Sequence record: PV390658.1
Strand: one strand, 5' to 3'
DNA length: 64,000 nucleotides
From: Escherichia phage vB_EcoM_P54
In this document: positions 54,487 through 54,628 of the stretch, one piece after another
How positions within the stretch are numbered: position 1 is the first letter of the stretch
Layout: each line of letters opens with the position of its first letter
Notes under the pieces: model-generated
What the model saw: only the letters and a program-made list of their open reading frames with translations
Database searches by the model: none
What the model was told of the DNA's origin: nothing
Translations under genes and position numbers: made by a program

Positions 54487-54628
54487 AAATTATCTTTGTA
54501 GATAAGCTACCCAGACTTGCTTAAGGTCTGTAGCGATGTGTCTTTTCGGGTTAAATCTAGAATCTACCCTTTCACCTTTGTGGTCGCATACTCACAGGGA
54601 AGCTTAATAACTTATCTACAAAGATAAT
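54487..54628. repeat. 19 bp perfect inverted repeat (AATTATCTTTGTAGATAAG / CTTATCTACAAAGATAATT) enclosing a 104 bp core
   Basis: Left arm 54487-54505 and right arm 54610-54628 are exact reverse complements; lies between tRNA-Lys(UUU) and an orphan T-arm. Confidence 0.8.

Follow-up and report, generated by a model that had tools for sequence, protein, structure and literature searches.

The tRNA cluster of Escherichia phage vB_EcoM_P54 contains a long perfect inverted repeat, and the question raised by this locus is whether the repeat acts as DNA or marks the ends of a folded RNA. We analysed a stretch of 64,000 nt from this phage, referred to as the window, which belongs to a Felix O1-type phage of the genus Felixounavirus and has 24 tRNA genes on the minus strand from 49839 to 55490. 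The sequence AATTATCTTTGTAGATAAG is located at 54488-54506 and its exact reverse complement at 54611-54629, with a core of 104 nt between the two arms. An earlier note on this DNA had described the same 19-nt arms and 104-nt core, and the description stands apart from its positions, which were one base too low. Among the perfect inverted repeats of the 64-kb window whose loop does not exceed about 300 nt, this one has the longest arms; the runner-up has arms of 13 nt, and the maximum arm length in 40 first-order Markov randomisations of the window was 15. The existence of the repeat is thus confirmed, and its length goes well beyond what chance would give.

The 142 nt from 54488 to 54629 on the minus strand, called element E here, are the final part of the 426-nt spacer between tRNA-Tyr (54910-54997, minus strand) and tRNA-Lys(UUU) (54408-54483, minus strand), and they stop 4 nt before G1 of tRNA-Lys. 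The repeat had been placed inside the tRNA cluster round a core that is neither tRNA nor ORF, and this is what we found: the two tRNA genes lie on either side of it, no tRNA was called in the core by ARAGORN or the Rfam tRNA models, and the longest ORF touching the core has 36 aa. A tRNA was rejected on the absence of such calls, and a coding sequence on the shortness of the ORFs and on the indels by which the two alleles described below differ. An intrinsic terminator was also considered and rejected, as no terminator-like site is present and the A/U-rich stem is followed by UAAU and then by the tRNA. Two sigma-70-like promoters (55517..55637, minus strand; at 55637 and 55546) lie upstream of tRNA-Pro and are the likely start of a predicted transcript holding E together with four neighbouring RNAs, elements A to D. 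The minus strand downstream of them has no terminator-like site before 49676, and the following promoter-like site (54234) is encountered only after tRNA-Ile. From the promoter positions and the lack of a terminator-like site before 49676, E is predicted to be co-transcribed with the tRNAs on the minus strand.

As a minus-strand RNA, E folds into a 24-bp closing stem round three hairpins, H1, H2 and H3, with an MFE of -45.6 kcal/mol (z = -5.0). The 5' strand of the closing stem is AAUUAUCUUUGUAGAUAAGUUAUU (54606..54629) and the 3' strand is GGUAGCUUAUCUACAAAGAUAAUU (54488..54511). The stem consists of 19 perfect pairs followed by U-G, U-A, A-U, U-G and U-G, pairs 20, 23 and 24 being the U-G pairs. 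Two-sided changes occur in 9 of its 24 pairs, for example from U-A to C-G in pairs 4 and 12 and from G-C to C-G in pair 19. The fold prediction and these nine covarying pairs bear out the earlier expectation of a long terminal stem that closes a structured domain.

Each hairpin has its own conserved features. H1 (54579..54596, minus strand) has a UGUG/CACA stem, in which 4 of 4 pairs covary, and the loop AGUAUGCGAC; the loop core GAGU(A)(U)GC is also found in the second allele (type 2) and in two of the distant relatives considered below (L210 and L212). H2, GGGUAGAUUCUAGAUUUAACCC (54548..54569, minus strand), carries a CUAG-centred palindrome at its tip. Within it, GAUUCUAGAUU is unchanged in both alleles (UCUAGA), L210 has AUACUAGUAU, and the basal stem covaries in type 2 (UUUCCUU/AGGAAAU versus UCUCUUG/UAAGAGA). 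H3 (54512..54530, minus strand) abuts the 3' strand of the closing stem and consists of a CAGAC/GUCUG stem with the 9-nt loop CUUAAGCAA. The H3 stem of 5-6 bp varies freely with pairing kept (CAAACC/GGUUUG, CAGUC/GACUG, GUUC/GAAC, AAGUC/GACUU), and the loop is limited across homologues to CUUAAGCAA, CUUUAGCAA or CCUUAGCAA. Judged by sequence, the loop CUUAAGCAA is a putative compact form of the UACAGCAA motif carried by the neighbours A to D. We also considered H3 as a mimic of the anticodon stem-loop of the adjacent tRNA-Lys; this was dropped because the H3 stem varies while the tRNA stem is constant or varies independently. No targets complementary to UACAGCAA or CUUAAGCAA beyond chance were found in the window.

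The strand and the level at which the fold is maintained were evaluated in an alignment of 16 sequences and 39 pairs, with slid partners and 500 shuffles as controls. Standard pairs make up 98.2% of the pair cells in this alignment, two-sided changes occur in 17 of the 39 pairs compared with 1-3 when the partners are slid, and the observed pairing and covariation values were reached by none of the 500 shuffles. When read on the minus strand, the wobble cells comprise 81 G-U against 2 A-C, and therefore the helix is selected in minus-strand RNA and not in duplex DNA or in the plus strand. A covariance model built from 13 sequences (R1) gives E a score of 162.9 bits on the minus strand compared with 44 bits on the plus strand. 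We therefore hold with high confidence that E functions as a folded minus-strand RNA.

Four neighbouring RNAs on the same strand, all without annotation in relatives, have a common module. Three of them are short Y-RNA-like modules: element A (55246..55324; UGAC-AGA-AGACCAA-UUACAGCAA ... UUGGUCU-G-GUCA), element B (55092..55157; UUGC-AGA-AGACCGU-AUUCAGCAA ... ACGGUCU-G-GCAA) and element C (54772..54851; GAGC-AGA-AGACCAA-AUACAGCAA ... UUGGUCU-G-GCUC). Element D (54628..54764) is Y-RNA-like with a YrlA-type layout, which consists of a bulged basal stem, a T arm, a closed acceptor-like hairpin and a D arm. All four have an exact CAGAAGACC on the 5' side and GGUCUGG on the 3' side, and all carry GCAGAAG/ACAGAAG. 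The outer 4-bp helix differs in sequence in each paralogue with complementarity kept in 4 of 4; it is followed by an internal loop (5'-AGA/3'-G), the inner helix AGACC/GGUCU and then N3-U(A/U)CAGCAA. The UACAGCAA motif is common to A to D, so that the whole can be described as a bulged-stem/UACAGCAA module.

In element D, the T arm (GAAGG-UUCGAUU-CCUUC), the hairpin in the acceptor position (ACUCGGC-AGAU-GUCGAGU) and the D arm (GUGU-AAUGGUA-GCAC) stand, by eye and by fold, in the YrlA order (layout of PMC4201824). Its acceptor-like hairpin is closed by a tetraloop and covaries in Mooglevirus. D adjoins E, and its last helix has two A residues in common with the first pairs of E. RF02553 was not reached by A to D, and D matched no Rfam Y RNA model, with no RF02553 match at E values up to 10. 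On sequence grounds, E appears to be a diverged paralogue of the A-D set.

A few other features of the cluster are recorded here. The window is without tRNA-Asp(GUC) (about 54905-54910), which relatives have between tRNA-Tyr and element C (alignment A1); in some relatives an HNH homing endonuclease gene has also been inserted at this place. Two more hairpins are found at 54852-54905 (minus strand), just 5' of element C, the second of which shows a compensatory change from G-C to A-U among relatives (GGG/UCC versus GAG/UUC). A tRNA-like sequence at 53805-53883 (minus strand) is annotated in relatives as tRNA-Arg(UCU); in the window, ARAGORN does not call it and its Rfam score is just 31.7 bits, and its 3' part lies under a 130-aa ORF (53439-53831) with a weak HNH match. 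A second long hairpin, at about 52861-52950 (minus strand), is located directly 5' of tRNA-Leu(UAG) and forms a stem of about 25 bp, G-U pairs among them. It has a weak match to Rfam MIR473, the equivalent site in Escherichia phage ESCO56 scores 27.6 bits with R1, and it may be a further processing or structural RNA element.

E occurs in two forms. Type 1, the form of the window, was found in 189 phage records and type 2 in 60, and together they are present in about 249 of the about 252 Ounavirinae records that have the neighbouring 471-aa gene. The earlier note had proposed searching related phages for the arms and for sites lacking the element; in this search E was always found at the same site and no empty site was seen. 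The flanks and the outer stem ends of the two types are almost identical, and the cores are strongly diverged. When L004, L005, L126, L127, L134, L208 and L209 were compared, the switch points between type 1 and type 2 fell inside the outer 11 bp of the stem. The existence of two deeply diverged alleles in near-identical Felixounavirus flanks suggests either cassette-like recombination or exchange, or diversifying selection.

More distant homologues were found in a metagenomic relative (L210; neighbouring protein 63% identical; 79 bits with R1), in Yersinia phage P778 (L211; protein 53% identical; 31.8 bits, E 2.5e-5) and in a metagenomic phage (L212; protein 56% identical; 21.6 bits, E 0.004). 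The latter two were missed by the default filters of R1 and found with the filters off. All three lie directly 5' of tRNA-Lys(UUU) and keep the length of the closing stem. In L211 and L212, the long closing stems are of unrelated sequence, and an H3 hairpin with the loop CCUUAGCAA or CUUAAGCAA stands beside the 3' strand of the stem; from modest scores combined with synteny and these motifs, we take both elements to be probable homologues of E. The L212 homologue opens with the UUUGCAAAG-helix-UU-UCAGCA module of the neighbours and is closed by the standard module stem, which ties E to the module family by descent. E was found just in Ounavirinae-like phages, and the modules are far more widespread. 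A scan of IMG/VR with the 14-mer AACGGTCTGGTAAT returned mostly random contigs.

There are two natural variants. In the deletion variant Escherichia phage ESCO56 (L213, 2300-2560), element C, tRNA-Asp, tRNA-Met, tRNA-Ile and most of D are gone and about 27 nt are left of tRNA-Lys, yet E is intact. Erwinia phage phiEa21-4 (L214, Kolesnikvirus, 2617-6100) has the same synteny, but the Ro-like gene, every module and E are absent from it, and 7 nt separate its tRNA-Phe from its tRNA-Lys. The gene and the RNAs co-occur, their joint absence resting on this one lineage. In the same phage, an unrelated 178-nt spacer element at 3183-3360 is closed by a long stem (AAACUUUAAUGGUCUGG.../...CCAGAGCCAUUAAAGUUU).

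E begins 1,027 nt past the stop codon of the 471-aa gene (55656..57071, minus strand), which is on the same strand. The protein has the Pfam domains DUF2828 and DUF7788 and the DxSxS MIDAS motif DVSGS, and it is annotated in relatives as 'vWFA protein', 'RNA-binding protein' or 'hypothetical'. A profile search of it against PDB sequences gave no match, and Ro60 was seen only by fold comparison. Its AlphaFold2 model (pLDDT 87) matched in Foldseek the full-length Ro60/TROVE structures 9kop, 2i91, 1yvr and 2nvo (E about 1e-7, TM 0.47-0.67), and the matches include Xenopus Ro60, Deinococcus Rsr and the Ro60 of Thermus phage phiLo. The DUF2828 protein models as a Ro60 (TROVE+vWA) fold. According to a preprint based on a knockout screen, the homologue gp130 of Felixounavirus Bas63 is Ro60-like and counters the Ppl defence (PMC11482910); that 'some tRNA genes are possibly Y RNAs' downstream of gp130 is given there as the authors' guess only. 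Elsewhere, a phage Ro60 has been reported to bind phage Y-like RNAs (PMC12135203).

The DUF2828 protein family occurs in 701 phage records, ranging from enterobacterial phages to mycobacteriophages, and in the latter it is annotated as 'Ro-like RNA binding protein'. In distant phages, the pattern (A/U)A(A/G)G-helix-U(A/U/G)CAGCAA ... helix'-C(U/A)G is found beside the DUF2828 gene on the same strand. For example, three module RNAs follow the gene in Mycobacterium phage MiniLon (L215, 3960-4230), and the middle one is matched by the Rfam YrlA model (E 1e-6). TRNA-like RNAs that bear the module beside DUF2828 genes matched RF02553 in MiniLon and in the IMG/VR loci L136, L142, L167 and L192 (of the set L136-L207), with significant E values from 1e-6 to 5e-5 and scores below the gathering score. 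Across 76 distant loci, every T-arm-like hairpin that was not called as a tRNA lies on the strand of the gene. Because RNAs with the same module lie beside distant DUF2828 genes, elements A to D of the window appear to be members of a widespread Y-RNA-like family that is linked to DUF2828 proteins.

How far E itself resembles a Y RNA can now be considered. Chen et al. (2014), who describe the YrlA layout, use location within 4 kb of a Ro60 gene on the same strand as the criterion for a Y RNA (PMC4201824). E lies within this distance of the 471-aa Ro60-fold gene, and its 5' and 3' ends are paired into a long stem that closes a structured module. The Ro-binding motif or bulged helix (GGUCCGA; GNCGAAN0-1G; CA-N-A-R-G...C-Y-G here) is absent from E, as its closing stem has no bulge and no AAG...CUG module signature. 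RF02553 gave no match on E at E values up to 10, and no T-loop or D-loop signature was found. Because E has neither a Ro-binding motif nor an Rfam Y RNA match, the term Y-RNA-like rests for E on context and paralogy. The likeness to Y RNAs put forward in the earlier note is therefore upheld by the Ro60-fold gene upstream and the Y-RNA-like paralogues, and fails at the level of motif and Rfam match. E probably belongs to the set of putative Y-RNA-like partners of the Ro60-like protein encoded 1 kb upstream. Since it is without the basal signature of the module, it may bind this protein differently, or it may bind another factor.

For the processing, stability, protein binding and biological role of E, we propose the following mechanism. 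E would be a stable non-coding RNA of about 140-150 nt that is cut from a polycistronic minus-strand tRNA precursor. Cleavage by RNase P at tRNA-Lys(UUU) would set its 3' end and leave a 4-nt tail after the 24-bp stem, the long closing stem would stabilise the RNA, and the H3 loop would present the family motif CUUAAGCAA. Its most likely role would then be that of an RNA partner or adaptor in the phage Ro60-like ribonucleoprotein system. Taken as a whole, from release out of the tRNA precursor through stabilisation by the stem to action in the ribonucleoprotein system, this is the mechanism towards which we lean, by a little more than an even balance.

On the other hand, E may act mainly in cis: the 24-bp duplex would be cut by RNase III or would block exonucleases, and would in this way part the Y-like RNAs from tRNA-Lys-Met-Ile, with an excised core that has no function. 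The A/U-rich stem is long enough for this, since an RNase III substrate is about two helical turns of near-perfect dsRNA and E offers 19 perfect pairs, or 24 with wobbles. In addition, E directly adjoins D and is 4 nt away from tRNA-Lys, the second long hairpin (stem about 25 bp) has a corresponding place directly 5' of tRNA-Leu(UAG), and the stem length of E is kept in L210, L211 and L212. However, an RNase III site needs no deeply conserved 9-nt loop, no CUAG palindrome and no covarying H1. Moreover, ESCO56 keeps E though its adjacent tRNA-Lys is destroyed, and the short tRNA-Phe/tRNA-Lys spacer of phiEa21-4 does without such an element. We consider a purely cis-acting role to be rather unlikely; RNase III processing as such is compatible with the release of E as a stable RNA, of which it would be a maturation step.

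A further reading, which we rate as highly unlikely, sees in E the decayed remains of a tRNA or tRNA-like RNA that persist by inertia, with the four-way junction as the remnant of a cloverleaf. The topology is indeed cloverleaf-like, with three hairpins inside the closing stem and the last of them next to its 3' strand, a 7-nt UUCUAGA loop is possible for H2, and GAGUAUGCG of H1 is also present in the variable/T region of the tRNA-like sequence at 53805-53883. Nevertheless, every helix shows compensatory changes and the loops are conserved over large distances, which points to purifying selection on the fold, and tRNA features are not recognised by ARAGORN or Rfam, there being no GG D-loop and no UUCRA T-loop. 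A DNA-level element, namely a palindromic protein-binding site, a cruciform, an origin or a packaging signal, would account for the perfect 19-bp palindromic pair in duplex DNA. This reading is barely tenable when, outside the perfect arms and in the second allele, pairing relies on G-U on one strand only (the 81 against 2 A-C given above), when the internal hairpins covary, and when E sits in a tRNA cluster that is predicted to be transcribed. The remaining suggestion, a miniature inverted-repeat transposable element (MITE) or the footprint or target of a homing endonuclease, has the terminal inverted repeats and the HNH homing endonuclease genes that come and go in the tRNA cluster among relatives on its side, but we discard it almost entirely, as the insertion and nuclease target named in the earlier note find no backing in a single-copy element at one fixed site in nearly all relatives, with no empty site, no target-site duplication, no match in 5,426 E. 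coli genomes or 72,556 plasmids, and a divergence in step with the phage lineage by structure-preserving changes.

Returning to E as an RNA partner in the Ro60-like system, a bolder version can be formulated, which we regard as speculative and distinctly unlikely to hold in full. E would represent an undescribed class of phage small RNA, a Y-RNA derivative in which a 24-bp duplex has taken the place of the Ro-binding base and a hairpin loop carries the ACAGCAA-type motif, and it would function with the Ro60-like protein in an anti-defence ribonucleoprotein. If this were true, the adjacency of tRNA-Lys(UUU) would link E to the protection or surveillance of the tRNA most attacked by host anticodon nucleases. 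The stem-plus-ACAGCAA module would be a class of RNA ligand for DUF2828/TROVE proteins from mycobacteriophages to enterobacterial phages, perhaps also taking in the Class I RNAs of Dictyostelia.

Phages of the Felix O1 type are in wide use for typing, biocontrol and therapy of Salmonella and E. coli, and in about 250 genomes E either has no annotation or is wrongly listed as a 'hypothetical protein'. The Ro60-like protein implicated in countering Ppl now has concrete candidate RNA partners, and the pairing of Ro60 with Y RNAs is extended, as putative binding, to the large DUF2828 family. In addition, the module provides a simple sequence-structure signature for finding DUF2828-linked RNAs.

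Compared with known systems, E shares features with several. Species 1 and 2 of phage T4 (rnaC/rnaD) are non-tRNA structured RNAs that are co-transcribed with, and processed from, the phage tRNA cluster. E resembles this general description as a non-tRNA structured RNA of a phage tRNA cluster, and we know of no Ro60-like gene beside the tRNA cluster of T4. The processing stems of RNase III, as in the rRNA operon and the early sites of T7, are long near-perfect duplexes that flank a structured RNA in a polycistronic precursor. E is similar to them in its duplex and differs in the conserved loops of its own core, and its cleavage is putative.

The Class I RNAs of dictyostelids (RF01414; PMC7919456) resemble modules A to C in their length of about 60 nt, in the short terminal stem, in a conserved motif with an ACAGCAA core that directly follows the 5' strand of this stem, and in the 3' CUG whose C is paired to a 5' G; the H3 loop of E would be a shortened form of this motif. 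Unlike the phage modules, they are eukaryotic and have no known link to a protein. The RF01414 model scored 24 bits at 55096-55149 (element B, the best), 15.3 bits at 54776-54843 and 15.7 bits at L212:8495-8583, against a gathering score of 41.5, and it gave no match on E. The resemblance may be due to chance or may reflect a cross-kingdom RNA class for DUF2828/TROVE proteins, and we treat it as a lead only.

The closest comparison is with the bacterial and phage Y RNAs (Yrn1, YrlA/YrlB; RF02553; PMC4201824; Yrl1/Yrl2 of phiLo, PMC12135203). E is like them in having a Ro60-fold gene on the same strand within about 1 kb, in being one of several clustered RNAs, and in the pairing of its ends into a long stem round a structured module. 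Elements A to D are like them in the bulged basal stem and the YUAY-containing motif (UUAC of UUACAGCAA), and D also in its T arm, closed acceptor hairpin and D arm in the YrlA order. The differences lie in the protein, which here is of the DUF2828 branch without a sequence-level match to solved Ro60, in the embedding of the RNAs in a tRNA operon, and, for E, in the lack of a bulged Ro-binding helix, of a GNCGAA/CGAA motif and of a tRNA-like domain. The Ro60/Y-RNA pairing was already known, including in some phages (PMC4201824, PMC12135203). What appears to be new is a set of concrete Y-like RNA candidates in Ounavirinae, in a comparison that leaves out the 22-phage list of Chen et al. 2014 (PMC4201824), together with the apparent placement of such RNAs inside a tRNA operon. 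The candidate DUF2828-linked module signature would also be new, leaving out whether the RNAs of cluster-L mycobacteriophages are in that list. E itself, as a long-stem three-hairpin RNA without an Rfam counterpart, is new, and it would show how a Y-like RNA can come to have another architecture.
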